Origin: a virus | Strand: one strand, 5' to 3' | Length of the DNA stretch: 64,000 nucleotides | IMG/VR virus record: IMGVR_UViG_3300008117_000079 | Shown here: positions 15,666-40,882 of the stretch, in pieces | Layout of the letters: each line of letters begins with the position of its first letter | Numbering within the stretch: position 1 is the stretch's first letter | Made by a program: the position numbers and the translations under genes | The notes under the pieces: model-generated | What the model saw: only the letters and a program-made list of their open reading frames with translations | Database searches by the model: none | Told to the model about the DNA's origin: nothing

Positions 15666-17570
15666 TCACCTAACAAAGTATAATGATATTTCATCATTAA
15701 TATCTTTCATTTTAATCCATCTACTAGGGATTTGTTGGTTTTTTAGAACTCTTATTTGACCAAGTAAACCAACAACATTCCATTCAGGTCTTTTGGCTCT
15801 AGGTGTGTAAGTAATAGTTGGGTCAAAATTTGGTGTTATCTTTGGTCTTTTCCCCGTAATTGTTTTATGAGTTGTAACTCCACTCACAACATTATCAACA
15901 ACGTCATAAGAATAATCCTCCATTACTATTTTACCCCAGATATCTTTTTCATATTTACCAACCCATTCATCTGCTGTACCATCTTCATTGTTACCAACAA
16001 GTGTAGGTGTTGATGATATGACACCAATTGCGTTATTAGCGTCTTGACAAACTTTTATTTTATCCCCGTCTAATTCTACAACGGTGCCAAAAGGAAGTGC
16101 TTCACCTGTTACGGATTCAAAATATTCAGCGTAATCGGCACCAGTATTATAACTGGCACCAGCGCCATAAACATTACCACTTGTGTCAACTCTAAATGCG
16201 TTTGACCTTGCGGAATTTGATGTGCCTTTACCTATAATAAATAATTGATTTGGGTTTGTTGTGTCATTCCACGTACCAGAAACGTGTTGATACCCTTCGT
16301 ATGCAATTGTCCCATTACCTTCAGCGTGTGACCCAATACTTAAACTTAATGTTGTGTTACCTTCAGCGTGTGAATAGGTGCCCCCCTGAAATAAAGTTTG
16401 GTATGGTAGACTTTTTCCCCACATAAAGGCTCCAGGGTTATAAATAGAAAGTGGAACTCCGGCACTAACAAATAACCCCGGTGTTGCTAATGTGACATTT
16501 GTTTTTGTTGTAAACGTTGCTGTAGTTACGGTGTGTATTGACCCATCTAAAATAACTGTAGTTCCACTAGGGAAATAAGCCGTTAAATCCCCAAAAGAAG
16601 CTGGTAAACCAACAACACTACTACTTGTACCGTCTGTTTCCCAACCAGGTAACCCAACTCTATTGTTATAGCCTTCAGCGTGTGACGAGTAACCAATTGT
16701 TATATTACCAACACCCTCAACGTGAGAAACGTAACCTAAACTTAAGTTGTCATCACCTTCTGCGTGTGATCCAACACCTAACGCAACATTATTAAAAAAG
16801 TAACCACCTTCAACGTGAGCCCCAAAACCTAGGGATTGGGATGTATTTTGGTTTACCCCTTGATATGGGTACGTTGTTGCTAATGAGGTTGGGTCATAAA
16901 TTGAAAGTGGTAGCCCTCCGCCTGCATTTAATGTTGTATCAGTTAATTGTATGTTTGTTAAAGTGGTGAATGTTGAGGCACTTACAGTGTAGAACTGACC
17001 ATATAAAACAACTATAGTTCCGGATGGGAAATTGCTAGATAAATCACCGAAACCGCTAGGTAATTGAATTAGGCCATTAAACGTACCATTAGTCGTCCAA
17101 GCAGGTAAACCTGTAACACCATAAGCCCCTTCAGTGTGTGAAGAACCACCATATGTTCTTGTTTGATACCCTTCTGCGTGAGAATACTCACCGTTAGATG
17201 TTGTATCAATACCTTCAGCATGGGAAGTGAGACCTTTTGACGTTGTTTGATAACCTTCGGCGTGAGAATAACTCCCACTAGCTACAACGTTATAACCAAA
17301 AGCCATTGATAAAAAATCATCAGCTATAGACCCATTTGATTGTATGCTATCAAAAAAAGTTATTGGTGAACAACCAACAACATTACAAACGTGTAGTTCG
17401 TTAATTGGACTTCCTGATGTGTTCCCAGTAAATGAAGATACAACACCTGTTAAATTACTACCATCACCATAATATGTAACAGCAGAAAATGTTGTAGCAC
17501 TTACAGCACCATTAATTATCTGTTCTGTTAGTGTATTGTCTAAATTATCTATTATATATTTTACGCTCAT
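15666..17570 (-). CDS. tail fibre-like protein with repeated [GY]xSHAEG motifs
   Basis: At least 10 copies of the short motif YSHAEG / GSHAEG / VSHVEG spaced 12-20 aa apart, Gly/Thr/Ser-rich between; 634 aa. A C-terminal non-repetitive domain contains DYAEYFE. Confidence 0.55.
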   Translation of the reverse strand: MSVKYIIDNLDNTLTEQIINGAVSATTFSAVTYYGDGSNLTGVVSSFTGNTSGSPINELHVCNVVGCSPITFFDSIQSNGSIADDFLSMAFGYNVVASGSYSHAEGYQTTSKGLTSHAEGIDTTSNGEYSHAEGYQTRTYGGSSHTEGAYGVTGLPAWTTNGTFNGLIQLPSGFGDLSSNFPSGTIVVLYGQFYTVSASTFTTLTNIQLTDTTLNAGGGLPLSIYDPTSLATTYPYQGVNQNTSQSLGFGAHVEGGYFFNNVALGVGSHAEGDDNLSLGYVSHVEGVGNITIGYSSHAEGYNNRVGLPGWETDGTSSSVVGLPASFGDLTAYFPSGTTVILDGSIHTVTTATFTTKTNVTLATPGLFVSAGVPLSIYNPGAFMWGKSLPYQTLFQGGTYSHAEGNTTLSLSIGSHAEGNGTIAYEGYQHVSGTWNDTTNPNQLFIIGKGTSNSARSNAFRVDTSGNVYGAGASYNTGADYAEYFESVTGEALPFGTVVELDGDKIKVCQDANNAIGVISSTPTLVGNNEDGTADEWVGKYEKDIWGKIVMEDYSYDVVDNVVSGVTTHKTITGKRPKITPNFDPTITYTPRAKRPEWNVVGLLGQIRVLKNQQIPSRWIKMKDINDEISLYFVR

Positions 17571-18003: not shown

Positions 18004-21000
18004 TTAAGAGTTAATATTTGTTATGTTTAATACGTCACTACCATCATAATAGCTTAATCTAATAGAATTACTTGAGTTTTCAAATACATTACAATTGTAG
18101 TTGTCATACACAAAAGTTGCTGATGTAAAATCATAACCGCTAACAATACAGTTTATAATATTTTTTTGGAAGTTTGACCCTATATTTGTCGCACTTTGGA
18201 AGGCGTTACTAATGTTATTATAATAAAAATTATTACCTATAATTTCATTGTTATAAAACCCATACCCAATTACATTATTACTAAAGTTGTTTCCGGGTGT
18301 TGGGGACGTGAACATAGAGTTCCAAGTTGTGTTTGTTGGTGAAACTGAACTATTAAATGATCCCTCAACAGCAACATTATATATACCACCACCATTGTCG
18401 TCTCTTTTAATTTCAAGTACTCCAGGAACTATAACATCAATTGTTGATGGACTATAATCTGGTCTTTCAAATGTGATTGTAGGTCCAGATGTTGGGAAGA
18501 CCAATTCTCTAGTATATTTAAATCCACCGCCATTTCCTCCTTGAGTCCATTTGGTAAATACAACTTTATGATATTCATTACTAACTGTATCATACATAAT
18601 AAGTTCTCTACCAATTATATTATTACCAACATTACCATTTAAAGCATCTCTAAAATTATCATACGTTCTAGTTGTAATATCTGAAAAGTCATAGAAACCA
18701 TATCCATCACCAAATCTATTATTACTAAAATCACTCAAAATAGAATTACTATCCATTGAGGACAATCTATTATTCCCAAAATAATTACCAATAAAGTTAT
18801 TGGTGACATCGTAATTAAAAATATTACCATTAACACCATTGCCAAGTTTATTGGTATCAAAATAACTTACTTTGTTGTTATTGAATCCATTACCTATGGT
18901 ATTTTTTAAGAATTCATTACCACAAATGTTATTATTAAATTGATTTCCAATTTCGTTATTTTGGAATTCGTAGTATACAATATTCTCTCTAAAATCATTA
19001 CCAATATCATTTCTATAGAAAGAACTACTTATACTAGGTTCCCCAATAAAGTTATCATAGAAACTATCCCCAATTAAATTATTGTAGAATGGTGAGTATA
19101 TTGTATTTCCACCACTTGTTGGTCCGTCAAAACCAAAATAGTTACCTATTTTATTTGATCTAAATTCACTATATATTGTGTTTTCAGTTCCGGAGCCACC
19201 ATTACCAAAATAGTGTCCTATTTGGTTGTCCTCAAAATCATTATCAATAATGTTAAATGCCATAAAATTACCAACGTTATTTGAAGTAAACACACCATTA
19301 ATTGGATTTGGGAATCCACCAATACCCGCGTTTCCAACAAAGTAATCACCAAAATTATTTAGTATTGATAATGTATTAAATGAATTAAACCAAAATGAAT
19401 TTCCTATTTTATTATTTGTAAAATCGGAATCTATTAGATTATATATGATATCATCACCGACAACATTGTATTGGAAACCGGTATTTATAACATTTCCACC
19501 ATTTCCACCTGGATTTGTTGCACCAGGATAATTTGTGTCATTACCAAAGTAATTTCCAATTTTGTTAAATTTAAAGTCGTTGAAAATTGTGTTTGTTACT
19601 GGTGGTGTGGAATCTGAATTAAAATTACCGAAGTAATCGCCGATTATATTTGACTCAAAATTATTACCAATTGAGTTGTAATAAAAATAATTTTTAATTG
19701 TGTTATTTTCAAAATTATCCCCAATAACATTATCACGGAATTCATTACCAATAACGTTGTTATACATAAATTGACCAATTAGGTTGTCTTGGAATTTATC
19801 ATTAATAACGTTACCCTGTTCGTTACCCCCACCATAACCAAAATCACTACCGATTATGTTGTTTTGGAAAAGGTTACCAATTTTATTATACCCAAATCTT
19901 TCACCACTATTAGGCTCGGTATAAATAGAATTCCATTCAGTATCACTAGGGCTTACAGAACTATTCCAACCACCTTCAGAAAAACTATTATAAATACCAC
20001 CATTGTTACCTCTAGTTATTCCAACTCCAGCAACACCTGGTACAATAACATCAATATCATTAGTGTAATTTCTTTTTGTAAATAATATTGTAGACCCAAT
20101 TGTGTTACCGGCAGAATCAATTTCAGTTCTTTCGTATTGGAACCCACCTCCATTATTATTTTGTGTCCATTGTGTAAATTTAATTATAAAGTATTGTGAT
20201 GTAGAAATAATTCTCATAACAAATTCTTTACCTAATAATCTATTACCTAAATTGCCGTTACCTACAATATTATTAAAGACATCATATGTTCTTGTTGAGA
20301 CCGTAGATAAATCATACCACCCAAATAGAGTTTGATTTTCTGGTACATTACTTTGGAAATAAGTTTGTATATCATTATAAATAAAATCATTACTAATTTT
20401 ATTATTATAGAAATAATAATCTGTAGAGTTATTAAAAAAGTTATCGTTTACAATATTGTTATTAAACCCATTACCGATATTGTTTACTCTAAAATTATAT
20501 CCGGTTTGGTTATTATTAAACCCGTTTAAAATTGTGTTTCCAATAAATTCACCATTTATTTGATTATTTTGGTAATTAGTACCAACTCTATTGTTTTGAA
20601 ACGTTTGTCTAATAGTATTATTTAAAAAGTCATTACTTATATAATTTCTATAAAACTCAAAATTATCTAAGTTTCCAAAATCACCTATTATATTATCTTG
20701 AAATCTATATAAAATATCGTTTTCGTAAAAATCAGAATAAATAGTATTATTACTGAAATTATCCCCAATTATATTATTCCTAAAATTGGTACTATTTTCA
20801 CCTAATATTTTGTTATTGGCAAATTGGTTCCCAACTTTAGAGCTCTCCATATTAGAGTTTATTAAATTATTATTAAAATAATAACCAAAAGTACATTCAT
20901 CTATATCATTGGTTGACACATTTTCATAACAATAATCACCCCAAGTATTATTTTGATTGTCAGTACCAAAAGTATTATTATAGCAGTAATCACCAAATTT

Positions 21001-22020
21001 ATTACTTTCATATTGCCCTTCTAAGAACACATTATTTGCCAATAAGAAAGTTCCTGGTCCTACATTTTGATAATTATTAGCGTAATTACCAATATATGTG
21101 TTCTTAACATAATCGTTTGATATTGCATCTCCGAATGTTGTATATTCTAAATAGTCATATGTTTTAACGTTTGTTTGTTTGTAACTAAAATAACCAGAAC
21201 CATTATTTTCTTCAATTCCCATATAAAAATTACTACAACAACCAAATGAATTTATAGTATCACCGGATACAGCCATTGTTGTGTTATCGGTAATACTTAT
21301 AATTTCGTGGAATCTACTATTACCATCCATATAAATTACATCACCAACAGATAAACTAGTAAAATAAGTATTAGTACCAAGCACAGTACCATCGCTTTGT
21401 AATTCAATAGACCCATTTAATGGTTGTTGTTGTCTAATAGTAAACAACCTATATCTTTTAAATAAAATGTTTCTGTGATCGTAATCAGTCCTATTGTTAA
21501 ACTCATCAATTCTTTCGGAAATTCTACCAAAAGCAGGATTAGTAGTAACTTCAGTTGTACTATAAGTCCAATCATATAGTATTCTATCTTTAGGATATGT
21601 TGGTTGGTAAGCTATTTCACTTATTGTATTTTCACTTGTTGCCAAAACTAAAATAGGTTCAACCGGACCTTGTTTATAGTTACCACTAGTAATTGGGTTA
21701 CCATCATAATCAAAATCTGGTTGGTCATAACAAGTTTGGAAGTCCGTGATTAAATAAAAAGTACTGGCCGTTAAGGTATTAGTACTTATTCTATTGACAA
21801 GGTCAGAATATGTTACTTCTGTAGCCCCAGTTATACCACCTCCACCACCTCCGGCTTCAAGATCTATAATGGTTCCATTTGGATTTAATTTGTCAAATGT
21901 CCCAGTAAGTGAGTCAACACCGACATAATACACATCAGTTTGTGGTGTTAAGGTTGTAAAATCAACACCATTTACAAATTGTGTTTCTAGACCATTATTT
22001 TTTAAAATTAATTTACCCAT
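18004..22020 (-). CDS. giant Asn-rich beta-solenoid structural protein (putative fibre / receptor-binding protein) with internal ~150-aa duplication
   Basis: 1338 aa. Hundreds of degenerate ~9-10-aa repeats of form N-N-x-I-G-x-x-F (NNIIGDNFS, NNTIRQTFQ, NNKIGNSFW...). Two copies of a ~150-aa non-repeat module (residues ~565-715 and ~1095-1245) share ...TRTYDxF...G(K/R)E(F/L)(V/I)M...(F/V)TKWTQxxNGGGFxYxR...IDVIVPGV...GGIYN...EG(G/S)(W/F)NSSVSPxxTxWNS. A T4-type late promoter TATAAATA lies upstream. Confidence 0.6.
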   Translation of the reverse strand: MGKLILKNNGLETQFVNGVDFTTLTPQTDVYYVGVDSLTGTFDKLNPNGTIIDLEAGGGGGGITGATEVTYSDLVNRISTNTLTASTFYLITDFQTCYDQPDFDYDGNPITSGNYKQGPVEPILVLATSENTISEIAYQPTYPKDRILYDWTYSTTEVTTNPAFGRISERIDEFNNRTDYDHRNILFKRYRLFTIRQQQPLNGSIELQSDGTVLGTNTYFTSLSVGDVIYMDGNSRFHEIISITDNTTMAVSGDTINSFGCCSNFYMGIEENNGSGYFSYKQTNVKTYDYLEYTTFGDAISNDYVKNTYIGNYANNYQNVGPGTFLLANNVFLEGQYESNKFGDYCYNNTFGTDNQNNTWGDYCYENVSTNDIDECTFGYYFNNNLINSNMESSKVGNQFANNKILGENSTNFRNNIIGDNFSNNTIYSDFYENDILYRFQDNIIGDFGNLDNFEFYRNYISNDFLNNTIRQTFQNNRVGTNYQNNQINGEFIGNTILNGFNNNQTGYNFRVNNIGNGFNNNIVNDNFFNNSTDYYFYNNKISNDFIYNDIQTYFQSNVPENQTLFGWYDLSTVSTRTYDVFNNIVGNGNLGNRLLGKEFVMRIISTSQYFIIKFTQWTQNNNGGGFQYERTEIDSAGNTIGSTILFTKRNYTNDIDVIVPGVAGVGITRGNNGGIYNSFSEGGWNSSVSPSDTEWNSIYTEPNSGERFGYNKIGNLFQNNIIGSDFGYGGGNEQGNVINDKFQDNLIGQFMYNNVIGNEFRDNVIGDNFENNTIKNYFYYNSIGNNFESNIIGDYFGNFNSDSTPPVTNTIFNDFKFNKIGNYFGNDTNYPGATNPGGNGGNVINTGFQYNVVGDDIIYNLIDSDFTNNKIGNSFWFNSFNTLSILNNFGDYFVGNAGIGGFPNPINGVFTSNNVGNFMAFNIIDNDFEDNQIGHYFGNGGSGTENTIYSEFRSNKIGNYFGFDGPTSGGNTIYSPFYNNLIGDSFYDNFIGEPSISSSFYRNDIGNDFRENIVYYEFQNNEIGNQFNNNICGNEFLKNTIGNGFNNNKVSYFDTNKLGNGVNGNIFNYDVTNNFIGNYFGNNRLSSMDSNSILSDFSNNRFGDGYGFYDFSDITTRTYDNFRDALNGNVGNNIIGRELIMYDTVSNEYHKVVFTKWTQGGNGGGFKYTRELVFPTSGPTITFERPDYSPSTIDVIVPGVLEIKRDDNGGGIYNVAVEGSFNSSVSPTNTTWNSMFTSPTPGNNFSNNVIGYGFYNNEIIGNNFYYNNISNAFQSATNIGSNFQKNIINCIVSGYDFTSATFVYDNYNCNVFENSSNSIRLSYYDGSDVLNITNINS

Positions 22021-22089
22021 TTCGTGTTTTTATTTATAAATATTTTTGTTTATCAAATAAGTTCTAAAAACGTTTACTTTTTTGTAAGT

Positions 22090-22815
22090 TTATAAGCCAA
22101 ATCTACTTTTTGTCATATTATAATTATAATTTATTTGTGGTTGTGTTAAAGCATAATTAAACACCTCAAAACGACTCAAATACATTTTAGAATAAGAACC
22201 ATCACCCATACTCGTAGGACAATTACTGGCAATGGCGTAATATAAATTTGTACCATTATTATATGGGGCTGCTCTATTGAATGTTAGGGTGCCTGCCGAT
22301 GAACCATTAACATATGCAGTTAATGTTGTGCCATTATAGACCATACCTATATAATACCAATTATTTAAAGGGGTTGCTATTGATGAAGTTATAGAACTAA
22401 TAGCACTACCATCCCACATTCCAAATTTTAAAGTACCACTAACCATTTCAATTTGAGAGTCAAACCAAGCTGTATTTGGTGTTGGTGATGTACCTTGTTC
22501 ACTAAGAATAACACCATTATCCATTGGATAAATCCATAAAAATATAGATGTAACTTCTGATTTTGTTGGTGATGTTCCATTAAAAAAACTATCTAATGCA
22601 GTATTAGTTATTAAGTATTCATTAACACCATCAAAATATATTGACCCTGACGTAAATGCCGAATAGGTTGGTGTATTACTTAACGTTCCATCTGAAACAT
22701 CAAATAAATCGGTAACTACAGAACCGGTTGTTGGATATGAATTTTGATTTGTAAAATCATAACACAAAATTGGTTTAGCTGGTATACTAGATAATATCGC
22801 TTTATATTTATTCAT
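22090..22815 (-). CDS. LamG_3 (concanavalin A-like lectin) domain protein, paralog 1 of 6
   Basis: C-terminal ...MYLSRFEVFNYALTQPQINYNYNMTKSRFGL matches the Laminin_G_3 end signature (IxxxRIYNRALSxxEI) and the conserved terminal xKxRFG[LF]. Divergent copy of the array at 24298-28201. Confidence 0.55.
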   Translation of the reverse strand: MNKYKAILSSIPAKPILCYDFTNQNSYPTTGSVVTDLFDVSDGTLSNTPTYSAFTSGSIYFDGVNEYLITNTALDSFFNGTSPTKSEVTSIFLWIYPMDNGVILSEQGTSPTPNTAWFDSQIEMVSGTLKFGMWDGSAISSITSSIATPLNNWYYIGMVYNGTTLTAYVNGSSAGTLTFNRAAPYNNGTNLYYAIASNCPTSMGDGSYSKMYLSRFEVFNYALTQPQINYNYNMTKSRFGL

Positions 22816-22819
22816 AGTC

Positions 22820-24199
22820 TTACCTTACTATCCAATACTCCACTCTTGTCCCTTCAGACCATTCAGCATAAATTATATTAACAGTACTTGTTTGATAAGT
22901 TGTACTACCCAATAATACCCACCCAACTGGAACTGTGGGCGCTGTACCACTATTATGGTATATTTTTTGGGTAACCCCTAATTTAGCATTTGTTAAAGTA
23001 TCTGTTAAATTAGAAGATATCGGTGAAGAGTAAGTACCGAATACTGTGTTACCGGTAAAATGTATTGTTGCTGTAGTACTAGATAATGTGGTTATTGTTG
23101 CTGGTTGCCAAGTTCCATTACCACTAGCATCAGAGGTTAATACATATCCACTTGTTGCTCCCGATGTTACTTGTAATGAGGTCGTTTTTGTTTTACCACT
23201 AACCTCTAATCTTTCTGTTGGGGTAGAGGTTCCAAACCCACTTAAATCACCTATAACATTTACAGTACCATCTTCAGATCTAAAATGAGCAGATGCTTTA
23301 CCATCAACACCACCCCTATCGGCTGAATAAAATTTGAACCCATTTGTAATACCACTAGTAGGTGAGGTACCATTAGGTATGTAAATACAATTTGAATCCG
23401 TAATGTCTTGTTGTAAATCACCTAATAAAAAATTACTAGTACACGTCAATGACGCCTTTTTTAAAATACTAGCACCTGGATTTCCGTCTGTCAACCAAAA
23501 ATTAAATTTACTTCTAGAAATAGACGAAATGATTTCTGTTTCTGTTTGTATTCTACCAGTATCATAACTAACACCAGCACTATAGTCTGTCCTAAATAAA
23601 ATTGAGGCCTTTCTTGTTTGGTTTTGGTTTTGTGAAAATAAAATATGATCAAGTTCGGAACCGTACCCATTACCTGCAAGAGATATGGGGTAATTTCCGT
23701 GAGTTAGACTACCTAAAGTTAATTTACCACTGCTGGAACTTAAACCATTTTCACTTAAAATAATTGCTGGGTTACCAAACTGATTGACTGATAGGTTTGT
23801 ACCATATTGGCCATTTTTTCTCATAGTTAGACCAAAATTAGAGTCACCATATTGTAAAGTATAATTGTCATCCCAAGTGGTGCTCACTGTTGAATTTGTG
23901 ACTGAAAATAAATTACCACTATCTACACTATTTCTAATTCTAAAAGTTGTGTCGGTAAGCGTTGTCCCAGTAGCTATTACTTGTAATATACCATTATTAT
24001 AAGTCAATTGACTACTTCCACTTAGTGATGAAGATGTATCAAATAAAGCAATTTGCCCTGTAAATCCACTTCCTGAAACACCTGAAGGTGGTAGATTATA
24101 ATAAGTTGTTGCTGATATACTTGTTGTGGTTAATGTACCATCAACTAGTCCGTTTCCCTTTGATACGAACCCATTTTTAATTATAAATTCATTTGCCAT
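22820..24199 (-). CDS. tail fibre-like protein with GYVLTSDxSGN..W motif
   Basis: 459 aa, Ser/Thr/Gly-rich. Contains LQVTSGATSGYVLTSDASGNGTWQP, shared with 28203..30323. Confidence 0.5.
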   Translation of the reverse strand: MANEFIIKNGFVSKGNGLVDGTLTTTSISATTYYNLPPSGVSGSGFTGQIALFDTSSSLSGSSQLTYNNGILQVIATGTTLTDTTFRIRNSVDSGNLFSVTNSTVSTTWDDNYTLQYGDSNFGLTMRKNGQYGTNLSVNQFGNPAIILSENGLSSSSGKLTLGSLTHGNYPISLAGNGYGSELDHILFSQNQNQTRKASILFRTDYSAGVSYDTGRIQTETEIISSISRSKFNFWLTDGNPGASILKKASLTCTSNFLLGDLQQDITDSNCIYIPNGTSPTSGITNGFKFYSADRGGVDGKASAHFRSEDGTVNVIGDLSGFGTSTPTERLEVSGKTKTTSLQVTSGATSGYVLTSDASGNGTWQPATITTLSSTTATIHFTGNTVFGTYSSPISSNLTDTLTNAKLGVTQKIYHNSGTAPTVPVGWVLLGSTTYQTSTVNIIYAEWSEGTRVEYWIVR

Positions 24200-24297
24200 T
24201 TAATCTTTTCCCTTTCCAAGATTTATAACAATAAATATATGTGTTAATTAAATCTGGATCTTAATGTATTATAATTTTGTAAAATTTATAAATACAA

Positions 24298-25029
24298 TCA
24301 AAACCCAAATCTTGACTTTGTTGAGTTATAGTTTTGTAATATTTCAGACGATGTAAGAACCCTATTATAAACAATACCCTGCGCAATACTACCAACCATA
24401 TATTGTCCAGCAAAGTTGGCTCCAGCAAACTGAATTGGTGCGCTATGGTCCGAATGTAATGTTGTTGTAGTTAATACTGGTATACCATTCACATAGATAA
24501 CAACATTATTATTTGGTGGTCCGGGTAAAACAACCCCAATGGTCTCACCAAATGTCATAGCAACGTGAGTCCAAGTGTTTGTACCTAAATTGATTCCAGT
24601 ACTTCTTATTCCCGCATTTATATTACAACTAGGACAAGTTGCTAAGTAATTACCCCAATCAAATGCACATAATACATTATCAATTAAAAATAAACCCCAA
24701 GCGTTTTGTTTTGTAATAACACCTCTAAAACTACTATTACCACTTGTTGCTTTAATCCAAGCACTGATTGTCCCTAAAGTTATTTGTAATTGTGGTGTGT
24801 TTCCACAATTAATATATTGGTTAGACCCATTAAAAGTAAACATACCACCGACAGATGTACTAAATATTGGTGTATTAACCAAAGAACCATTATTTATGTT
24901 TCCAGAAATATCTTTTAATGTTGACCCACCCTGTAAACTATAATAAGAATTCGGTGAACTTGGGTCTATATAAATTAATAAACCATCTTCAACAATATTA
25001 GGCCCTCGCCAATTACCTACCGTACTCAT
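24298..25029 (-). CDS. LamG_3 domain protein, paralog 2 of 6
   Basis: ...IVYNRVLTSSEILQNYNSTKSRFGF end signature; 243 aa. 4-nt ATGA overlap with upstream paralog. Confidence 0.65.
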   Translation of the reverse strand: MSTVGNWRGPNIVEDGLLIYIDPSSPNSYYSLQGGSTLKDISGNINNGSLVNTPIFSTSVGGMFTFNGSNQYINCGNTPQLQITLGTISAWIKATSGNSSFRGVITKQNAWGLFLIDNVLCAFDWGNYLATCPSCNINAGIRSTGINLGTNTWTHVAMTFGETIGVVLPGPPNNNVVIYVNGIPVLTTTTLHSDHSAPIQFAGANFAGQYMVGSIAQGIVYNRVLTSSEILQNYNSTKSRFGF

Positions 25030-25745
25030 AACCCAAACCTACGTTTTAATGTATTATAATTTTGTAAAACTTCTGATGATGATAAGGTTTTTGTGTAAAC
25101 CATAAAATTATTTATTCTTGCAGGTAAAAACCAAGTCTTCCCAGGAGTAGAATATGTACCCAAATTAAAATGGGTATTTGTGTTAAAATAACAATTCAAA
25201 CTAGTTGATGTACCTTCTAAAACCCCATTTACATAAAGTGACATTGTACTTGTTAAAATATCATAAGTACAAGTTATATTATACCAATTATTGATAGTCC
25301 AATTATTAGTTGTGGAATATATAATACCAAATGGGTTAAATGTTTGAAAACTAATCCTACCTGAAGCATTACCTAGTAAATGTAAATAATTATCAACACC
25401 ATTAAGTAATGTGTTTTGGGCTTCCATAACCATATAATAATTTGTATTTGCTGGCGTTATATTAATTGTTGGACTAAACCAAATACTAAAAGAATAGTTA
25501 CCAAATGTTTGGTTTGTTGTTATTTGTGGTAATCCTATGTAATCATTAGATCCGTCTAGTAATAAACAACCCTTATTTGTTTCAGAAAATGTTACACCAT
25601 TAATTAATGTTCCACTATTTTTTTGTTGTACACTAATATCTGACCAAGAAGTACTGCCCGAAATATAAGATTTAGGATTTGAGGTATCCAAATAATAAAT
25701 TAAATTTTCTAAAATAATATTTATACCACCCTCTGTTGTACTCAT
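25026..25745 (-). CDS. LamG_3 domain protein, paralog 3 of 6
   Basis: N-terminal LIYYLDTSNPKSY...WSD.S...N.GTLINGVTF....GCLLLDGSNDY and C-terminal MVYTKTLSSSEVLQNYNTLKRRFGL. Confidence 0.65.
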   Translation of the reverse strand: MSTTEGGINIILENLIYYLDTSNPKSYISGSTSWSDISVQQKNSGTLINGVTFSETNKGCLLLDGSNDYIGLPQITTNQTFGNYSFSIWFSPTINITPANTNYYMVMEAQNTLLNGVDNYLHLLGNASGRISFQTFNPFGIIYSTTNNWTINNWYNITCTYDILTSTMSLYVNGVLEGTSTSLNCYFNTNTHFNLGTYSTPGKTWFLPARINNFMVYTKTLSSSEVLQNYNTLKRRFGL

Positions 25746-26035
25746 TATCCATTACCATTAAGTATAGTTTGATTAAATGAAACTGAATATGGATTAACCC
25801 ATTCAGGAGTCTCCAAAATCGTTAAAATTTCTTCATAGGTATAAGGACCTTCTTTTGTTGTTAAAGAATCAACAGATGATGGAATATCACCATCCCACTT
25901 AACAAATGTTTTTGTTTCATCTACTGAGTTCCTGACTGTTTCTTCAGATGTTTCTAGTACCTGAGAAAAATCAATTTGATTTAACTCCGATACATTGAAT
26001 ATCATAAATTGTCTGTTGTTATAAACTGCTCCCAT
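25745..26035 (-). CDS. hypothetical small protein inserted in LamG array
   Basis: 96-aa acidic ORF, start overlaps stop of next gene; unrelated to flanking paralogs. Confidence 0.35.
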   Translation of the reverse strand: MGAVYNNRQFMIFNVSELNQIDFSQVLETSEETVRNSVDETKTFVKWDGDIPSSVDSLTTKEGPYTYEEILTILETPEWVNPYSVSFNQTILNGNG

Positions 26036-26040
26036 AATTT

Positions 26041-26790
26041 TTATAAATTAAATCTACCTTTATGTGCGTTAAAATTCTGTAATACTTCTGATTCAGATAA
26101 CGCTCTATTATATATTCTAGTTATTGCTATTTTTCCTTTATAATTTATAAGATTATTACCAGTACCTCTACCTAGTGTTAATGAACCACCTAAATAAGTA
26201 ATCCAAGAAGGGTTAGATGATATTGTTGCACCTGTTACTGTTGTAACCAAAGTGCCATTAACGTATATTTTAACTGTGGATAAATCTCTAGTTACTGTTG
26301 CCAAATTCCATTTATTTGCTGGTGCTACGTAATTTGGTGAACCTATAAAATTAAATGAACCTGGTGATGGATAAGGATTACCATTGTTTGATCTAAACCA
26401 TAGATACCCTATTGCACCATAATCATAAATATAATTTAGTTGGAATTGACTATCTTCAACTTGACCGGCTCTCATTAAGTGACCCGAACCATCAAATATT
26501 GCGTTTGTTCCACGACCAGTTGAGTAAAACCAAGATTCTAAAGTATGACCACTAGCAACACTTAAAGTTGGATTATATGTAATATTTGCGTAATCATTTA
26601 CACCATCAAATAAAATACTACCACCATTAGAAGTATCATAGGTCGGTCCATTTATTAAAGTAAAATTATTTCTATTACCTGTTAAATCAGACCATAACGT
26701 ACCGCTACTCGGATATGAATAAAGATTAGCACCATCCAAACATACTACTAAACCATTTGTTACCACATTAGGTGCTACATTTCCACTCAT
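26041..26790 (-). CDS. LamG_3 domain protein, paralog 4 of 6
   Basis: NGLVVCLDGANLYSYPSSGTLWSDLTGNRNNFTLINGPTYD...ILFDGVNDY ... IYNRALSESEVLQNFNAHKGRFNL. Confidence 0.65.
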   Translation of the reverse strand: MSGNVAPNVVTNGLVVCLDGANLYSYPSSGTLWSDLTGNRNNFTLINGPTYDTSNGGSILFDGVNDYANITYNPTLSVASGHTLESWFYSTGRGTNAIFDGSGHLMRAGQVEDSQFQLNYIYDYGAIGYLWFRSNNGNPYPSPGSFNFIGSPNYVAPANKWNLATVTRDLSTVKIYVNGTLVTTVTGATISSNPSWITYLGGSLTLGRGTGNNLINYKGKIAITRIYNRALSESEVLQNFNAHKGRFNL

Positions 26791-27488
26791 TGTCCAAATC
26801 TTGTTTTTAATGTGTTATAGTTTTGTAAAACCTCATTAGCTAATAAACCTCTATTGTATATTTTAACGTTTGCTATTTCACAATTACCATTTGTTGTTTG
26901 TCTTCTAGCTATTTGTAGTGTTCCGGTTGTATTTGTAATATTTCCGTCGGCAAAAACACTACTTACAAATACACCATTAATGTAAAATTTTAAATCATTA
27001 CCATCATAAGTAACACAGTAGTGGTTCCAAACATCTATACATTGTGAATTATTTAAAAGTGTAAATACAACTTTTTGACCTGTACCAGCCCAACGTTCAG
27101 AAGCAATTGCAATTACATTTGGGCTATCCCTATAAAACCACAAATTGTACCCATTTCTTGGCGCTCCATATTCACGATTAAGTAATCCGTGAAAAGTACT
27201 ATTTGCTGTGATTATTTTTGCAAATAAACTTAAAGTATAAGGACTTCTATTTAAAAATTGTAAATCTGACAATATAGGGAATGTACCTTCATCATTTAAA
27301 CCATCAAATAAAATACTCCCTTTATTTTTTGAATCAAATGTTGGACCATTAACTAATGTACAGTCATTGTTTCTACCACTTAAATCAGACCATACAGTTG
27401 AACCTGAAACATATGAATTAATGTTAGCAGCATCCAAACACAGAACTAAACCATTTGTTACTATTTTTGGTGAAAAATTATAACTCAT
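26787..27488 (-). CDS. LamG_3 domain protein, paralog 5 of 6
   Basis: NGLVLCLDAANINSYVSGSTVWSDLSGRNNDCTLVNGPTFD...ILFDGLND ... IYNRGLLANEVLQNYNTLKTRFGQ. ATGA overlap with neighbours. Confidence 0.65.
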   Translation of the reverse strand: MSYNFSPKIVTNGLVLCLDAANINSYVSGSTVWSDLSGRNNDCTLVNGPTFDSKNKGSILFDGLNDEGTFPILSDLQFLNRSPYTLSLFAKIITANSTFHGLLNREYGAPRNGYNLWFYRDSPNVIAIASERWAGTGQKVVFTLLNNSQCIDVWNHYCVTYDGNDLKFYINGVFVSSVFADGNITNTTGTLQIARRQTTNGNCEIANVKIYNRGLLANEVLQNYNTLKTRFGQ

Positions 27489-28201
27489 AATCCGAATCTT
27501 GTTTTTAAAGTGTTATAATTTTGTTTTAATTCACTTAAACTAAGGTCCCTATTATAGATATTAACAGTTGCAATGTTACAGTTATTATAATTTATAAACC
27601 CAGGGAACCCTATTAAAAAATTAGATGTTATATTGATTATATTACCTAATGATGTGGTTTGACTTAATAATTCACCATTTAAATACATTTTAAGTGTTGA
27701 CCCATCATAAGTTGATGAAATATATACCCAAGAACCTTGTATAGAACTACGACTTACATTTGCCCCTGTACCACTTGAACCAGCGGTTGAGAATCTCTCT
27801 GTGTAAATATAAACCTGATCTGATGGTTGACCTTCTATTGTGTATAATAAATTATAACCATTTCTAACACCACTAATAAAGTCTTCTCTTCTTATCCAAG
27901 AAGGGTATGTTGATTTAAAATTCACAATTTTAGTAAAAACAGAAAGTGTATACGGACTATTATTTAAAAAAAGAATGGAACTATTCTTACCACAATTTAC
28001 ATAATCGTTTAACCCATCAAACACTATACTACCCATATTATTGGGATTAAAAGTTGGTCCATTAATTAAGGTACCATCGTTTTTATTTTTTGATATGTCA
28101 TTCCATGTTGTACTACCACTAATAAATGATTTAGTATTGGCAGCATCTAAATATAATACTAACCCATCCGTAACAATTTTTGGTGAAAAATTAAAACTCA
28201 T
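27485..28201 (-). CDS. LamG_3 domain protein, paralog 6 of 6
   Basis: DGLVLYLDAANTKSFISGSTTWNDISKNKNDGTLINGPTFN...IVFDGLNDY ... IYNRDLSLSELKQNYNTLKTRFGL. Confidence 0.65.
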   Translation of the reverse strand: MSFNFSPKIVTDGLVLYLDAANTKSFISGSTTWNDISKNKNDGTLINGPTFNPNNMGSIVFDGLNDYVNCGKNSSILFLNNSPYTLSVFTKIVNFKSTYPSWIRREDFISGVRNGYNLLYTIEGQPSDQVYIYTERFSTAGSSGTGANVSRSSIQGSWVYISSTYDGSTLKMYLNGELLSQTTSLGNIINITSNFLIGFPGFINYNNCNIATVNIYNRDLSLSELKQNYNTLKTRFGL

Positions 28202-28202
28202 A

Positions 28203-30323
28203 TTATATACTTCTTATTATTGTTTTAACAACCCAGCTTGATGTTACGGCTGATGTCTCTAATATCGCATTACCACTACTCACAACCATATTAAATGTTA
28301 TACCACTTGTGTTTCCAAAATCGGTTGTTGTTGTTTCTGTAAAATTAACTGAAGTTCCACTCCATATTGACATAATGTTTCCGGCTCTCAAATTGGTACC
28401 ATCATTAACTGTGTAATCAAAGAAAGCTCCGGTGTATGCGCTTGTAGGAATTGAGTATATTGTTGTAGTTCCGGCGTTTGCGGTCTTTTTACTTGTAGTA
28501 TTTAGTGATGGTGCTTGGTAACTACCCATTAATATCGTATTATCACTAAAGGCTTCAAGTACTGGTAGACCAGAAATATCGTTAACACTAAATAATGAAC
28601 CAATTAAACTATCTGTAACACTAAATAACTCACCACTTGATCCTTGAATTGTAAATATTGGTGTTGTCGTTCCGGAGCCATAAATTTTAACAACGTCTGT
28701 TGTTTGACCAGAAAATATTGAGTTCCCATTAACATATAAATTACCATCAACTCTTGTATTTCCACTTACGTGTAGTCTTTGTTGAGGAACTCCTTTAGTC
28801 CCAAGACCTAAATAACCATTACCATCACTAATAACCTCAAGGCGCATCATTTCGGTATTGAGACCTCTAGCTGTTAATACTGGTGCCGCATGCCAAGCAA
28901 AGTGTTTACCACTTAAGGTTCCAGAATAGTGAGAAAGGTCAAAATATAAATTACCATTACCGCCACCGGCATTTTCGTGATATGAAGATAGCATTGAACT
29001 ACCAGCAAAATAAGAACCCCATAAACTTGCGGTATAGTCTGGTGAAAACGTTGAGAAAAATACTGATGTTGAAAACGCCCCATTTTTTCTTTGAGCAATT
29101 TCAAAATAAGTTCTTGACGCTGAAGTATTACCTTCACCATAAAAATTAATTATGTTTGCACCAGAACCATTTGATTGGAAACTTAAATTATTTCCATTCA
29201 TAGTAACAGTTCTACTACCAGTTAATGTGCCATCAGAATTATATAAATTAGTATTAAACGGGGCTTGCCAACTAGCGTTACCACTCACATCTGATGTTAA
29301 AACATATCCACTATTAGCCCCATTTACAATTTGCAAATCTTGTGTGACTACTTTTCCAGATGGTAATTCTATTGATACTTGGTTTGTTGAGCCAAAATTA
29401 ACATTACCTTCGTCGCCTGGATTAATATTTAATGGTGAACAGGCGTGTAAATTTGATACGTATATATCCGCAATACATTCAGATATTGTGTTTCCGGTAA
29501 ATTTAAGTGGTGCTAAATCAACAGAATATGCATTTGTCAAATCATTCCTATTAAACTCAACAATTGTACCATTAAGTGTTGCACCAGTTGTGTAGGTGTT
29601 TGTATCGTCAAGTAATTGACTAACGTCAACAGAAAAGTTAGTCACCAAATCATTACCAACAAAATCAATACTTTCACTTAATGAATTATATGTTCCGGCA
29701 GTTAAATAAAAATTATCTGTTGATAACGAACTTAAATCAACATTAAATGGAACAAATCCAGTATTTCCAGAAAAAGTAATTAATTTTGTTCCGGGATTAA
29801 AAGTTCCTGAAGTTACATAAATATCATTCTCTGGTAAATCAATTAAATATGTTGTTCCGGAACCTATAATGGACCCGCCACTTAAAATTATATTACCATT
29901 TAATACAATTAGTTGGCCTTCAGGTTCTAAGTCCAATGTACCCTCAACGATTAAATCACCATATATAAAACTTTGGAAATTATTTTCAATTATATATGTT
30001 TGTCCCGATGGAATAAACCATCTATTATATCTTGGAATATCGGCAGATAAACTTGTTCCGTTGTTTAAAGATAATGTTAGATTATCCTCTAAAGTATTAT
30101 ATGTTACCCCGGTTAAAAAAGTATCGCTTGAATCAAAGTAATTGGCTAACTCACCAATAGTTACTTTGTTTGTTACATCTGCTTCAACATTAACTATTGG
30201 TAGAACATCAAGTGATGAAATATCATTTGCTAAAATTAATGGTAAGTCAACTATTCTTTTATTTAAGTTGGGCATAGTTTTTATTTGATAAATATACTTT
30301 AAGTTATGTTTTTGATTCCCCAA
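28203..30323 (-). CDS. tail fibre-like protein with GYVLTSDxSGN..W motif
   Basis: 706 aa with LQIVNGANSGYVLTSDVSGNASWQAPF. The ORF-track start at 30323 is a TTG codon; first ATG gives MPNLNKRIVDL at ~30275. Confidence 0.5.
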   Translation of the reverse strand: MGNQKHNLKYIYQIKTMPNLNKRIVDLPLILANDISSLDVLPIVNVEADVTNKVTIGELANYFDSSDTFLTGVTYNTLEDNLTLSLNNGTSLSADIPRYNRWFIPSGQTYIIENNFQSFIYGDLIVEGTLDLEPEGQLIVLNGNIILSGGSIIGSGTTYLIDLPENDIYVTSGTFNPGTKLITFSGNTGFVPFNVDLSSLSTDNFYLTAGTYNSLSESIDFVGNDLVTNFSVDVSQLLDDTNTYTTGATLNGTIVEFNRNDLTNAYSVDLAPLKFTGNTISECIADIYVSNLHACSPLNINPGDEGNVNFGSTNQVSIELPSGKVVTQDLQIVNGANSGYVLTSDVSGNASWQAPFNTNLYNSDGTLTGSRTVTMNGNNLSFQSNGSGANIINFYGEGNTSASRTYFEIAQRKNGAFSTSVFFSTFSPDYTASLWGSYFAGSSMLSSYHENAGGGNGNLYFDLSHYSGTLSGKHFAWHAAPVLTARGLNTEMMRLEVISDGNGYLGLGTKGVPQQRLHVSGNTRVDGNLYVNGNSIFSGQTTDVVKIYGSGTTTPIFTIQGSSGELFSVTDSLIGSLFSVNDISGLPVLEAFSDNTILMGSYQAPSLNTTSKKTANAGTTTIYSIPTSAYTGAFFDYTVNDGTNLRAGNIMSIWSGTSVNFTETTTTDFGNTSGITFNMVVSSGNAILETSAVTSSWVVKTIIRSI

Positions 30324-31661: not shown

Positions 31662-32831
31662 TTATTTTAATTTAACTCCAAGTTTATTCCAAGATAACCA
31701 AGATGGTATATTTGATTTACCGGCTTTTGGTTTTGGATTATGTTTTGGTTGGAAAGGGGTTCCCTTTCCTGGTGACTTTTCTTTAGTTCCGGGTTTTTTA
31801 ACTGGAGTCGGAGCTGTTTCTGTCCCATACATTTCTTTTAACTCATCAGATTTTGCTTTTGGTTTTGGGTTGTGTTTTGGTTCAAAAGGATTTTTTCTTT
31901 CTCTACCTTTATCCTTTTCTTTTTTGTCTGTATCTGTATCTGGTTTTGTTCTTTCTTTTTCTTTTGTATCACCAGCTTTCGGTTTTGGATTATGTTTTGG
32001 CTCAAAAGGATTCTTTCTTTCTCTACCTTTATCTTTCTCTTTTTTGTCAGTGTCAGGTCTTGTTTTTGTTCTTTCCTTTTCTTTTGTGTCTTCTTTCATT
32101 TCACCAGAAATTGAATATAAATTACCAATTGGTTTTGTCATTTTACCTTTTGGTTGAAACATAGTATTCTTTTTTGGGTTTCTCAACACGAAGTTTTCTG
32201 ACTTATTAACTTTTTCCATAATTGTTTGGATAAGTTCCCCTTTTGTCATTTCTGGATCTGTGTGTCTTTCAATTAAACTAACAATTCTATTTTCAAGGAA
32301 CTTTTCATATTCCTCTTCTTTAATACTTTTTCTTTTTTTAACTGGAACAGTTTTTTCTGGGTGTAATTTTTCTGACATTTTTTTGTAGTCTTTTTTTGTT
32401 GTAGAACTTGCAAATTCATCTCTTAATTTACACCATTTTTTTTGTTCTTTTGTTTTACCATTACCACATTTAACAAAAAACAATTTTTGTTGCGCCTTTG
32501 ATGCAAATTTTTCATCAAGTTCTTGTGATTCTTCACTCATCTCACCTTCTTTTGTTATTGCAGTTACAAGACCTGTTGAAGGGTCAATGCTAACCTCACC
32601 ATCAACCTTTAAACCTGTTTTCTTTAAATCTTCAACAGTACCTGTTACTTTTTTCATTGCCGGAACATTTGTGACTTGGAACGCTTCAGTCGGTTCATCT
32701 TTCTTTGTAAACTTCTCAACCAAAACCTTAACTTGGTTTGGTGTTAGATTTTTAATTGTTGAAAATGTAAGCCCATTTTCAAATAAAATTTTAATATCCT
32801 TTTTAGTTTTCATACACCATTTTTTTTTCAA
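31662..32831 (-). CDS. basic K/E-rich protein with three NPFEPKHNPKPKA-containing repeats
   Basis: 389 aa. C-terminal half has three ~40-aa repeats (...KEKERTKxxxDTDKKEKDKGRERKNPFEPKHNPKPKA...). Strongly charged, as in internal/DNA-associated head proteins. Confidence 0.45.
   Translation of the reverse strand: MKKKWCMKTKKDIKILFENGLTFSTIKNLTPNQVKVLVEKFTKKDEPTEAFQVTNVPAMKKVTGTVEDLKKTGLKVDGEVSIDPSTGLVTAITKEGEMSEESQELDEKFASKAQQKLFFVKCGNGKTKEQKKWCKLRDEFASSTTKKDYKKMSEKLHPEKTVPVKKRKSIKEEEYEKFLENRIVSLIERHTDPEMTKGELIQTIMEKVNKSENFVLRNPKKNTMFQPKGKMTKPIGNLYSISGEMKEDTKEKERTKTRPDTDKKEKDKGRERKNPFEPKHNPKPKAGDTKEKERTKPDTDTDKKEKDKGRERKNPFEPKHNPKPKAKSDELKEMYGTETAPTPVKKPGTKEKSPGKGTPFQPKHNPKPKAGKSNIPSWLSWNKLGVKLK
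31690..32100. repeat. ~120-bp tandem repeats (2 full + 1 diverged) within coding sequence
   Basis: ggttttgg(a/g)tt(a/g)tgttttgg(c/t)tcaaaaggatt(c/t)tttctttctctacctttatc... repeated at ~31860 and ~31980 with a diverged copy at ~31730. Confidence 0.65.
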
Positions 32832-38836: not shown

Positions 38837-40882
38837 ATGGCAATAGAATTCATTGATGACAACGACAAGAACAAGAAAAAAAGTGATAGTGGAACTCCGG
38901 TTCTAGACAACTTTAGTAAAGACTTAAATAAGTTAGCTCAAGAAGGTAAATTAGACCCTGTAATAGGTAGAGAAGATGAAATTATTAGAATTGCACAAAT
39001 TTTATCTAGAAGAAAGAAAAACAACCCTATTATTATCGGTGAACCAGGTTGTGGTAAAACAGCAATTGTAGAAGGGTTGGCAATGATGATTCATAGTGGT
39101 GAATGTCCTAAAAATCTTTCAGAGAAAAGAATTGTTTCCCTTGAGATGAATTCAATTGTTGCCGGTACAAAATATCGTGGACAATTTGAGGAAAGAATGA
39201 AAGTAATAATTGAGGAACTTCAAAGTAATCCAAACATTATTCTTTTTATTGATGAGATTCATACAATGGTTGGTGCTGGTAATAGTTCTGGTTCACTTGA
39301 TGCCTCAAACATCTTTAAACCGGCCCTTTCTAGGGGTGAAATCCAATGTATTGGTGCTACAACCCTTGATGAATATAGAAAGCATTTTGAGAAGGATGGA
39401 GCTCTTGAGAGAAGATTCCAGAAAGTAATTGTAGAACCATCAACAAAGGCTGAAACTTTTCAAATTTTAAAAAATAGTAAAGAAAAGTATGAAGAACATC
39501 ACAAGGTAACATATTCAGACGAATCACTTCTTTTATGTGTAGAACTTGCCGATAGATATATTACAGATCGTGAGTTTCCGGATAAAGCTTTTGATATTAT
39601 TGATGAGGTTGGGTCAAGAATGCAAATTGATATTAAACTTCCTGAAAGTATTGAAAATCTAAAACAAGAACTTCTTGAAATTAAAAAGGAGAAGTCTGAC
39701 GTTATAAAAAAACAGAAATACGAAATGGCTGCTGAGTTAAGGGACCGGGAAAAATCAGTAATGTCATCACTTGATGCCGAAAGATTAAAATTTGAGGAAG
39801 AACTTAGAAATAGTAAAAGAGTAATTCCGGAAGATTTAATTTATGAGGTTGTTTCTAAAATGACTAAAATCCCGGTAAGCAAAATTAATGTTGACGAGAA
39901 AAACTCTCTTGTTAATTTAGAGAACGCACTAAATAGCTATGTAATTGGTCAGGCTGAAGCGGTAACAAAAATATCAAAATCCATTAGAAGAAATAGAATT
40001 GGAATTAAGGACCCAAATAGACCAATTGGTTCATTTATCTTCCTTGGGTCAACCGGTGTTGGTAAAACATATCTTGCAAAGAAACTAGCAAAAGAAATTT
40101 TTGGTAGTGAAGATAGTTTGATTCGTGTTGATATGTCTGAATATCAGGAAAAACATACTATATCAAGGCTTATCGGTTCTCCTCCAGGATATGTTGGTCA
40201 CGAAGAGGGTGGACAGCTTACAGAACAGGTTAAAAATAAACCATACTCTGTTATCTTATTTGATGAGATTGAAAAGGCAAATAAAGATATCTTCTCAACA
40301 CTTCTTCAAATGCTTGATGACGGGCATATGACCGACGGACTTGGAAGAAAAATTAACTTCAAAAATTGTTTAATTATTATGACATCAAATATTGGTGTTA
40401 GAAAATTACAGGATTTTGGAACTGGAGTTGGGTTTAAATCAAATAGTAGTGAAGCAGTAAGAGAAGAAGAAAAAAGAGATATCCTCAAAAAAGAATTAAG
40501 TAAGTTCTTCGCTCCAGAATTCCTAAATAGAATTGATGACGTTATTGTCTTTAACTCGCTTAAAAAAGAGCACGTTGACCGGATTGTTAAAATTGAAATT
40601 GAGAAGTTAGTTAACAGAATTGAGTCAATGAAATATAAAATTACATACGATGAGTCAGTTGTTGAATTGATATCTGAGGTTGGGTTTGATGAACAATTTG
40701 GTGCAAGACCAATTAAAAGGGCAATCCAGGATAAAATTGAAGACCTTATCTCTGAGAAAATATTACTAAATGAAGTTCTAGAAGATGTTGATTATAAATT
40801 GACAGTTGTAGATAAGGAAATTAAGATTGATGTTCTTATTGAGAATAAACCTAAAAGGGGTAGAAAGAAAAAGGAGGGTTAA
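38837..40882 (+). CDS. ClpC/ClpA-family AAA+ chaperone ATPase (two nucleotide-binding domains, no Clp_N domain)
   Basis: D1 Walker [30 protein letters not shown] Walker B. Internal UVR-like linker motif [15 protein letters not shown] as in ClpC. D2 Walker [25 protein letters not shown]. Starts directly at D1, so the N-terminal double Clp_N repeat is absent. Confidence 0.85.

Follow-up and report, generated by a model that had tools for sequence, protein, structure and literature searches.

Why would a phage carry six copies of the same small lectin-like gene beside its fibre-like genes? The question is raised by a 64,000-nucleotide (nt) stretch of the viral record IMGVR_UViG_3300008117_000079 (the whole stretch is called the window here), in which six minus-strand open reading frames (ORFs) of 233–249 aa, each encoding a Laminin_G_3 (LamG) domain, form an array between positions 22090 and 28201. 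A preliminary description, made from the sequence letters, saw in this array a set of diversified adhesins with a common attachment tail, a built-in module for diversifying host range and a candidate for an undescribed system.

We read the six genes as encoding stand-alone jelly-roll subunits of the LamG/concanavalin type that a large freshwater phage (about 170 kb) carries in its adsorption (tail-fibre) apparatus, and give this reading a rough probability of 0.55. Cyanophages have multi-LamG proteins with the annotation of virion structural proteins, and the units would be the split-gene form of these. The units may assemble on or beside the fibres and bind host-surface glycans, and host range would be tuned over evolution by recombination in their conserved ends, which swaps, duplicates or deletes units as a whole, and not by hypermutation of their middles. 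Such tuning is plausible. The array itself is a copy-rich member of a common cassette and no singular system.

The six LamG genes

The six genes, P1 to P6, all match PF13385 (Laminin_G_3) with whole-protein scores of 49.5–66.9 bits and E values of 4e-14 to 3e-18 (the values listed per unit are in Table 1), where the gathering cut-off is 27.6 bits, and their membership of this family is far beyond chance. P1 to P5 can each be aligned with P6 over the full length at 25–49% identity, and all share an N-terminal core and a C-terminal motif, IYNRxLSxSEVLQNYNxxKxRFG. The six are true paralogues. The preliminary description had been right on this point: it had claimed six single-domain paralogues of about 240 aa at these positions, with a shared N-terminal core and a near-invariant C-terminal end. 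The alignment of the six bears this out, and all of them pass the gathering score in the PF13385 search that it had proposed.

Read in the direction of transcription, the cassette begins with a long fibre-like protein, fib706, that ends in a conserved domain called F706C. This is followed by P6 and its duplicate P5, the variable P4, a small protein called o96, and then P3 and P2. A second pair of a fibre-like protein and a LamG unit, fib459 and P1, comes after the cassette (Table 1). The genes are tightly packed. There are three ATGA overlaps (P6/P5, P5/P4 and P3/P2), and the longest linked chain comprises three genes, not the four that had been counted before. In addition, o96 and P3 overlap by 1 nt, the fib706 stop and the P6 start are 1 nt apart, and P1 starts 4 nt past the fib459 stop. 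The tight spacing and the start/stop overlaps would provide for co-expression. A scan of 17.5–31.8 kb for promoters and terminators gave counts equal to the shuffled expectation, and no terminator was found in the gaps.

The two fibre-like proteins share a region with the motif GYVLTSDxSGNxxW (41% identity over 71 aa, E 8e-10). The motif had been recognized previously, but the accompanying claim that the two proteins bracket the array fails, as fib459 lies inside it, between P2 and P1. The gene for o96 and a relic LamG tail behind P2 were both missed by the preliminary description.

A lectin-like fold with a conserved frame

An AlphaFold (AF2) model of P6, built from 113 sequences, is a β-sandwich of about 14 strands with a predicted local distance difference test score (pLDDT) of 92.5 and a predicted template modelling score (pTM) of 0.90. 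This confident jelly roll agrees with the LamG/concanavalin-like fold that had been proposed. A Foldseek search with the model gave 446 PDB matches at E ≤ 1e-3 with lectin-like jelly rolls on top, and the nearest solved folds are the lectin-like domains of clostridial neurotoxins and trans-sialidases. Proteins of a giant virus (AaV) are also among the structural matches, at 30% identity. By sequence, the LamG profile matches pentraxins, the lectin domains of sialidases and the LamG domain of an S-layer protein.

Conservation is unevenly distributed along the fold. Among the 113 homologues, the frequency of the majority residue is 0.69 in the N-terminal core (P6 residues 13–69) and 0.70 in the C-terminal helix (217–238), vs 0.32 in the middle (70–157) and 0.36 in a loop (184–206). 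These homologues come from other phages and show the same pattern as the six paralogues; conserved ends with a variable middle are therefore a property of the family fold and not a specific feature of this array. The pattern of conserved and variable positions expected by the preliminary description is thus present, but family-wide. The N-terminal strands and the C-terminal strand and helix form an invariant frame, and the variable middle (the stretches 70–157 and 184–206 of P6) would provide each unit with a surface of its own.

The C-terminal motif had been taken for a common attachment tail. In the P6 model, it is held by the last β-strand (207–216) and a C-terminal helix (222–236), with pLDDT values of about 88–98, and the PF13385 matches end at unit residues 220–236 (225 in P6), so that about half of the motif falls within the Pfam model. 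A 467-aa protein with fused units from another viral locus (L010; such handles denote the loci fetched for comparison) reads QNFNAYKSRYGI followed directly by PDIVTDGLVLNLDAGN, the tail motif (KSRYGI) running straight into the next N-terminal core. An internal tail motif is likewise found in p176 of cyanophage S-PM2 and gp5 of cyanophage S-SKS1. Since the motif is kept internally in fused units, it is no free docking peptide but the end of the domain itself. Several long, fibre-like proteins of more than 1000 aa carry one LamG unit at their end. The units are thus beads, either joined in a single polypeptide or made from separate genes, and their conserved ends are the bead frame, which in fused proteins also serves as the junction between beads.

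Natural fusions of at least two LamG units adjoin arrays of single units in L010 (10653–12056), L017 (2572–3966) and L089, which is S-SKS1 (3313–6195). With fused ORFs lying beside single-unit arrays, gene fission and fusion at unit boundaries appear to be frequent in this family.

Could the units be enzymes instead, or soluble proteins that are not part of the virion, such as jelly rolls akin to glucanases or lyases, with polysaccharides of the host or the environment as substrates? The concanavalin-like superfamily does include glycoside hydrolases and lyases of similar size, and viral PF13385 proteins have been reported as auxiliary metabolic genes (AMGs) linked to glycoside hydrolase activity (PMC8290583). 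Weak matches to the 3-keto-disaccharide hydrolase and sialidase N-terminal families were also seen, but these lie below the Pfam cut-offs and point to non-catalytic lectin-like domains, and the strict embedding of the units among fibre-like genes, together with their fusion to long fibre proteins, indicates a structural role. An enzymatic function is improbable on this evidence. A hydrolase of known type was looked for and rejected: the GH16-type ExDxxE motif is absent from all six units, and the middle has no conserved acidic pair in the 113 homologues. The conserved acidic columns (positions 12, 19, 35, 62, 66 and 224) are all in the frame.

A cassette found in many phages

The LamG family is widespread. 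A profile made from the six units matches more than 4597 protein clusters, and 444 relatives were found in IMG/VR. For a comparison of gene order, 80 viral loci were fetched, 68 of which are distinct. In most of these 68, a protein ending in F706C is followed by one to three LamG genes, then o96, then one to four further LamG genes. The F706C-ended proteins range from about 100 to 2400 aa. Distances between cassette genes lie between −4 and about 15 nt, and among 85 LamG-to-LamG junctions, 27 are 4-nt overlaps, nine are 1-nt overlaps and 44 are gaps of 0–15 nt.

The number of stand-alone LamG units, which the preliminary description had proposed to compare across related phages or metagenomes, differs between loci. 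Three is the usual number (32 of the 68 loci), followed by two (16 loci), one (eight) and four (seven). Six units are found in two loci, seven and eight in one locus each, and a single locus has none. Because loci with six, seven or eight units occur in this sample, the six copies of the window are a high number, but not a unique one.

Fifteen loci with the canonical arrangement A–B–o96–C allowed the units to be compared by position. Units of class A, the first after F706C, match each other across loci with a median of 136 bits, vs 94–97 bits for A against B or C, so that the first unit after F706C is a position-specific orthologue. Units at position B reach only 83 bits across loci, like units of different positions (80–97 bits). 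In the window, P6 and P5 are both of the A type, and the best matches of P6 elsewhere are first array units.

An identical P6 protein is present on 24 contigs from several metagenome samples (JGI, ENA and Logan assemblies), the longest of them 170 kb. None of 50,697 phage records was matched when the 8.4-kb region was searched with megablast. Among cultured phages, the LamG units have their closest relatives in Flavobacterium phage immuto (37% identity) and in the cyanophages S-PM2 and S-SKS1 (33–35%). As a candidate for an undescribed system, the array holds up in part: the LamG family is known, having been annotated automatically in thousands of uncultured phages, and it is the architecture of the cassette that is the undescribed part.

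Evolution of the units

P6 and P5 are reciprocal best matches with 48% identity and represent a local duplication, in which the middles retain 35% identity vs 66–68% at the ends. Synonymous sites are saturated in comparisons between paralogues, and most duplications must therefore be old, P6/P5 excepted.

The other units have close orthologues in other loci. P4 is 84% identical to the unit before o96 in L008, P3 is 82% identical to the unit after o96 in L021 and P2 is 96% identical to a unit of L008, with ratios of nonsynonymous to synonymous substitution (dN/dS) over the whole gene of 0.125, 0.161 and 0.080, respectively. P1 is 68% identical to its orthologue in L008 (dN/dS 0.219) and otherwise at most 34% identical to anything found. 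The middles of these orthologues are 79–96% identical for P4, P3 and P2 and 67% identical for P1, and their dN/dS taken alone (0.09–0.24 in the L008 and L021 pairs) is no higher than that of the N-terminal 70 residues. The units are under purifying selection, and the middles are conserved within each orthologous lineage and not hypervariable. The divergence of the middles, which the preliminary description had emphasized, is real between paralogues, but hypervariability is not part of it.

These data bear directly on the idea that the array is an actively hypermutating cassette, in which the middles are diversified by a diversity-generating retroelement (DGR) or another targeted mechanism. The much greater divergence of middles than of ends between paralogues, as in P6 and P5, would be expected from it. 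The conservation of the orthologous middles, the identical P6 on contigs from several metagenomes and the same conservation pattern in the 113 homologues all speak against it, and we give this idea next to no chance. A DGR as such was rejected because the 8.4-kb region contains no pair of template and variable repeats, only repeated paralogous ends. No reverse transcriptase family was found among the scanned ORFs of the window, and not every ORF was scanned.

Change is visible at the level of whole units instead. Compared with the single contig L008, the array is a mosaic, with identities of 43, 40, 84, 96 and 68% and the orthologue of P3 on another contig. After the stop of P2, and in frame with it, lies the relic tail, ILQNYNTLRSRFN followed by a stop codon, with no ORF upstream in a motif scan. 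At the DNA level, the relic belongs to a family of direct repeats (D4) and shares 74–84% identity with the ends of P2, P3, P5 and P6 that encode their tails. L008 has a similar relic at the equivalent place (~13240–13285). The relic records the loss of a LamG unit. Within 22000–30400 (8.4 kb), the only direct repeats are the paralogous end-coding segments, at 60–84% identity. The mosaic identities and the relic tails fit a history in which recombination in the conserved end-coding segments has added and removed whole units. What remains of the proposed diversification module is this plasticity, seen in copy numbers from one to eight, the 40–96% mosaic relative to L008, the P6/P5 duplication and the relic tail, but not a hypervariable middle.

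The conserved proteins o96 and F706C

The small protein o96 matches 7308 protein clusters, and the 120 best matches are 83–98 aa long and 71–98% identical. Searches of Pfam, PHROG, NCBIfam and PADLOC with o96 were without a match, and the 120 best relatives have neither a Pfam domain nor a name. It is predicted to adopt a small α/β fold that has no significant structural neighbour. Across the fetched loci, the median identity to the window is 71% for o96, 52% for F706C and 38% for the best LamG unit, and the major capsid protein of cassette-bearing loci is 30–45% identical. o96 is thus the most conserved gene of the cassette. A scan of bacterial genomes for o96 gave four contigs of metagenome-assembled genomes only, and no prophages; these contigs hint weakly at a host in Flavobacterium or the Bacteroidetes.

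F706C carries the motif GSxGELFSVTDSLxGSLFSVNDISGLP, and across 20 viral contigs (alignment A3) the last 215 residues are 45–63% identical. The proteins that it ends in these contigs are about 360–2400 aa long. Elsewhere, the domain comprises about 170–215 aa and always ends its protein directly before the first LamG gene. At least 971 proteins of the large database contain it. None of them has a Pfam domain, and their names are uninformative, including the “tricorn protease-like protein” of one JGI record. No relative was found in Pfam, PHROG or the PDB, and a large-database search did not confirm that F706C belongs to a fibre. Fibre proteins encoded after the array, including the annotated tail fibre of immuto (L001, 13079–14851), carry part of the motif (GELFSVTDSL.GSLFSVNDISGLP) near their N-termini.

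The fibre-like proteins themselves match no known family. Neither fib706 nor fib459 has a match in Pfam, PHROG, NCBIfam or PADLOC, nor does fib706 match any PDB sequence; the PADLOC models, which would reveal anti-phage defence or counter-defence systems, gave no match at E ≤ 0.01 for the LamG units, o96, fib706 or fib459. The positional equivalent of fib706 in immuto is annotated as a “putative tail fiber-like protein”. The N-terminal 30–50 residues of fib459 resemble the N-termini of post-array proteins in L075 and L021, and over its C-terminal 87 aa it shares 80% identity with the ORF before the P1 orthologue in L008.

The conservation of o96 and F706C suggests that the two act at assembly interfaces. 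Taken further, this leads to a different view of the LamG units, in which they would be structural connectors or scaffolds of a fibre network or of the baseplate periphery, that is, protein–protein modules with no direct role in receptor binding. Specificity would then reside in the long fibres: the N-terminal part of fib706, fib459, the 1338-aa protein downstream of the array and a tailspike-like protein of 634 aa. It agrees with this view that o96, F706C and the class A units are all more conserved than the capsid protein, which fits assembly interfaces better than a receptor-binding role, that all units are under purifying selection and that the N-terminal parts of the F706C proteins vary so much in length, which places variability elsewhere too. 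Pure scaffolds, however, would not usually shift in content and number as fast as these units do between close relatives. Position B units are as different between loci as units of different positions, and the nearest solved folds are ligand-binding lectin-like domains. We consider a connector role possible, though doubtful.

A more far-reaching proposal, which we make tentatively and do not expect to hold in full, is that the order F706C–LamG–o96–LamG constitutes a self-contained, horizontally mobile adsorption module. Such a module would have spread among very different aquatic phages, including the myovirus immuto and the cyanophage S-SKS1. The invariant LamG frame would be recognized by o96, acting as a universal assembly hub or chaperone, with F706C as a conserved platform for docking at the fibre tip, and unequal recombination in the conserved ends would add and remove lectin units. 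If this is true, each phage would possess a customisable, multi-specific fibre tip.

A probable role in adsorption

To return to the LamG units as subunits of the adsorption apparatus, additional, indirect support comes from the cyanophages. S-PM2 p176 is labelled “virion structural protein” in RefSeq, and in T4-like cyanophages labels of this kind go back to the virion proteomics of S-PM2, Syn9 and S-SM1 and to orthology (PMC3037559). The p175–177 block of S-PM2 has been described as potential adhesin components, and an allele of p175 swept to fixation in all replicate chemostats (PMC9910659).

Several points weigh on the other side. No tail sheath, tube or baseplate gene was recognized among the scanned ORFs of the window, and a tail location of the units, as opposed to another part of the particle, is for this reason inferred. 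The putative identity of fib706 and fib459 as fibres rests on their composition, their context and one annotated homologue, without a family match. ATGA overlaps, common among phage operons, are no proof of translational coupling. The “structural protein” labels in immuto and S-PM2 p176 are annotations only, as primary proteomic data were not located for these genes. Finally, it is inferred that the units are part of the virion, bind glycans, dock on F706C or o96 and influence host range.

Genomic setting

The window covers a structural region of the Caudoviricetes with about 31% G+C, and the array lies in a structural operon on one strand. Downstream on the same strand, the 1338-aa protein is followed by a 634-aa protein with a Peptidase_G2 domain and then by the genes for the large terminase, portal, prohead protease and major capsid protein, which lie at 5.7–15.6 kb.

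The proximity of these head genes raises the question of whether the units might decorate the capsid or neck, like Hoc or a head fibre. The units match PHROG family 8510, a virion structural protein in the category “head and packaging”, and the lack of recognized sheath, tube and baseplate genes nearby would agree with such a location. The PHROG category, however, is a label for the whole family and not for a location. In immuto, the cassette sits between annotated tail fibres, shortly before lysozyme, tail sheath and baseplate hub genes, and in S-SKS1 it is beside annotated tail fibre and baseplate wedge genes. A decoration of the head is unlikely in this light.

Table 1. Array genes and other features of the window discussed in the text.
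Feature	Coordinates	Strand	PF13385 E value	Description
fib706	28203..30323	-		706 aa from mechanical TTG start (alternative gene calls: 690 aa, ATG at 30275); long fibre-like, GYVLTSDVSGNASW motif
F706C	28206..28736	-		Conserved C-terminal domain of fib706, ~residues 530–706
P6	27485..28201	-	6.7e-13	238 aa LamG_3 unit, position class A (first unit after F706C)
P5	26787..27488	-	6.9e-17	233 aa LamG_3 unit, local duplicate of P6
P4	26041..26790	-	2.9e-18	249 aa LamG_3 unit
o96	25745..26035	-		96 aa, small, strongly conserved, embedded in array between P4 and P3
P3	25026..25745	-	6e-18	239 aa LamG_3 unit
P2	24298..25029	-	8.4e-16	243 aa LamG_3 unit
Relic LamG tail	24247..24285	-		13 codons, ILQNYNTLRSRFN and stop, in 98-nt gap after P2
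fib459	22820..24199	-		459 aa, fibre-like, GYVLTSDASGNGTW motif, between P2 and P1
P1	22090..22815	-	3.9e-14	241 aa LamG_3 unit, most divergent, paired with fib459
1338-aa protein	18004..22020	-		Asn-rich repeat protein, directly downstream of array
634-aa protein	15666..17570	-		Peptidase_G2 protein
Major capsid protein	5735..7594	-		619 aa
Lys-rich protein	31662..32831	-		389 aa, repeats
681-aa ORF	38837..40882	+		Matches PHROG “ATP-dependent protease”

The 1338-aa protein, which had no match in Pfam, PHROG, NCBIfam or PADLOC, is probably another fibre of the same apparatus; over about 790 aa, it shares 50% identity with the protein encoded after the P1 orthologue of L008. It is very rich in Asn, with many short IGNxFxNN-like repeats, and contains two copies of a module of about 130 aa (TRTYD...FTKWTQ..NGGGF.Y.R...DVIVPGV...GGIYN...NSSVSP..T.WNS). 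The 634-aa protein, probably a tailspike or fibre that cleaves itself, matches the Peptidase_G2 intramolecular-chaperone autoproteolytic domain with its C-terminus (E 1e-35), and also PHROG “pre-neck appendage protein”. In its middle part, it is similar to regions of the F706C-bearing proteins of L008 and L021.

Three further genes of the window have unusual features. Only the C-terminal ~250 residues of the major capsid protein match a PHROG major head protein, the N-terminal ~340 forming an unassigned extension. The Lys-rich protein, which has no family match, contains a repeat of about 40 aa in two full copies and one partial copy (DTKEKERTK..PDTDKKEKDKGRERKNPFEPKHNPKPKA). The 681-aa ORF matches its protease family with an E value of 6e-239, an unusual presence beside a structural region.

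Wider significance

Stand-alone PF13385 proteins are very common in aquatic viromes and are often reported as concanavalin-like “glucanases” or AMGs. Their placement in a fibre cassette makes such genes look like parts for host attachment and not like enzymes of carbon cycling. The cassette also exposes two abundant, conserved proteins, o96 and F706C, that have no family, structure or name. These two families are the most valuable leads, and the correction of the frequent AMG reading comes second. The cassette further offers a natural system for the gain and loss of binding modules by phages.

Comparison with known systems

One similarity is at the level of the fold. The jelly roll of the clostridial neurotoxin HCN domain and the trans-sialidase lectin domain match the P6 model with a Foldseek E value of 9e-12 and a TM score of about 0.7 on the query, and in the clostridial toxins a helix follows the last strand as in P6, leading to the next domain. 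With 13–19% sequence identity and unrelated biology, this is a resemblance of fold only.

Among viruses of eukaryotes, a hypervariable region of prasinoviruses is briefly described as containing genes for concanavalin-like lectin, tail-fibre-like and YadA-like proteins, which are read as host-interaction genes (PMC12906663); no cassette with o96 or F706C is known from these viruses.

The cyanophage proteins S-PM2 p176 (1058 aa) and S-SKS1 gp5 (960 aa), gp7 and gp8 belong to the same domain subfamily, with 33–35% identity over full units, the N-terminal core and a QNFNALxxRFGL end. In S-SKS1, the multi-LamG protein gp5 is followed by an o96 homologue (58% identity), like in the cassette of the window. 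However, the cyanophage units are beads of one long polypeptide, whereas the window has six separate genes, some with 4-nt overlaps, and no F706C was seen upstream in the cyanophage loci as fetched.

Small binding subunits encoded right after a fibre gene are known from the T2/T6-type gp38 on gp37, from BppA of Tuc2009 and from branched systems of multiple receptor-binding proteins, and the modular exchange of phage adhesin subunits is linked to host range. The logic of these systems is shared, but a family of up to eight units with a small conserved protein is a different architecture, in which attachment to the fibre tip would be presumed. No homology to gp38 was detected, as the Pfam scan returned PF13385 and sub-threshold lectin-like families, and PHROG returned multi-LamG families of unknown function.

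Among cultured phages, Flavobacterium phage vB_FspM_immuto (Immutovirus, 160 kb) has the closest relative of the cassette, in genes 218–223. Here, a tail-fibre-like protein is followed by two stand-alone LamG units (37% identity to P6), a 458-aa LamG-domain protein, the o96 homologue gp222 and a tail fibre protein, the N-terminus of which carries part of the F706C motif. The immuto cassette differs from that of the window in having two stand-alone units instead of six, and the similarity of its o96 is weak (43% over 46 aa). Its proteins are annotated only as “structural protein” (gp219/gp220) or “hypothetical”, and no experimental study of them was found. As a cultured phage that carries the cassette, immuto makes the questions raised by the window experimentally tractable.

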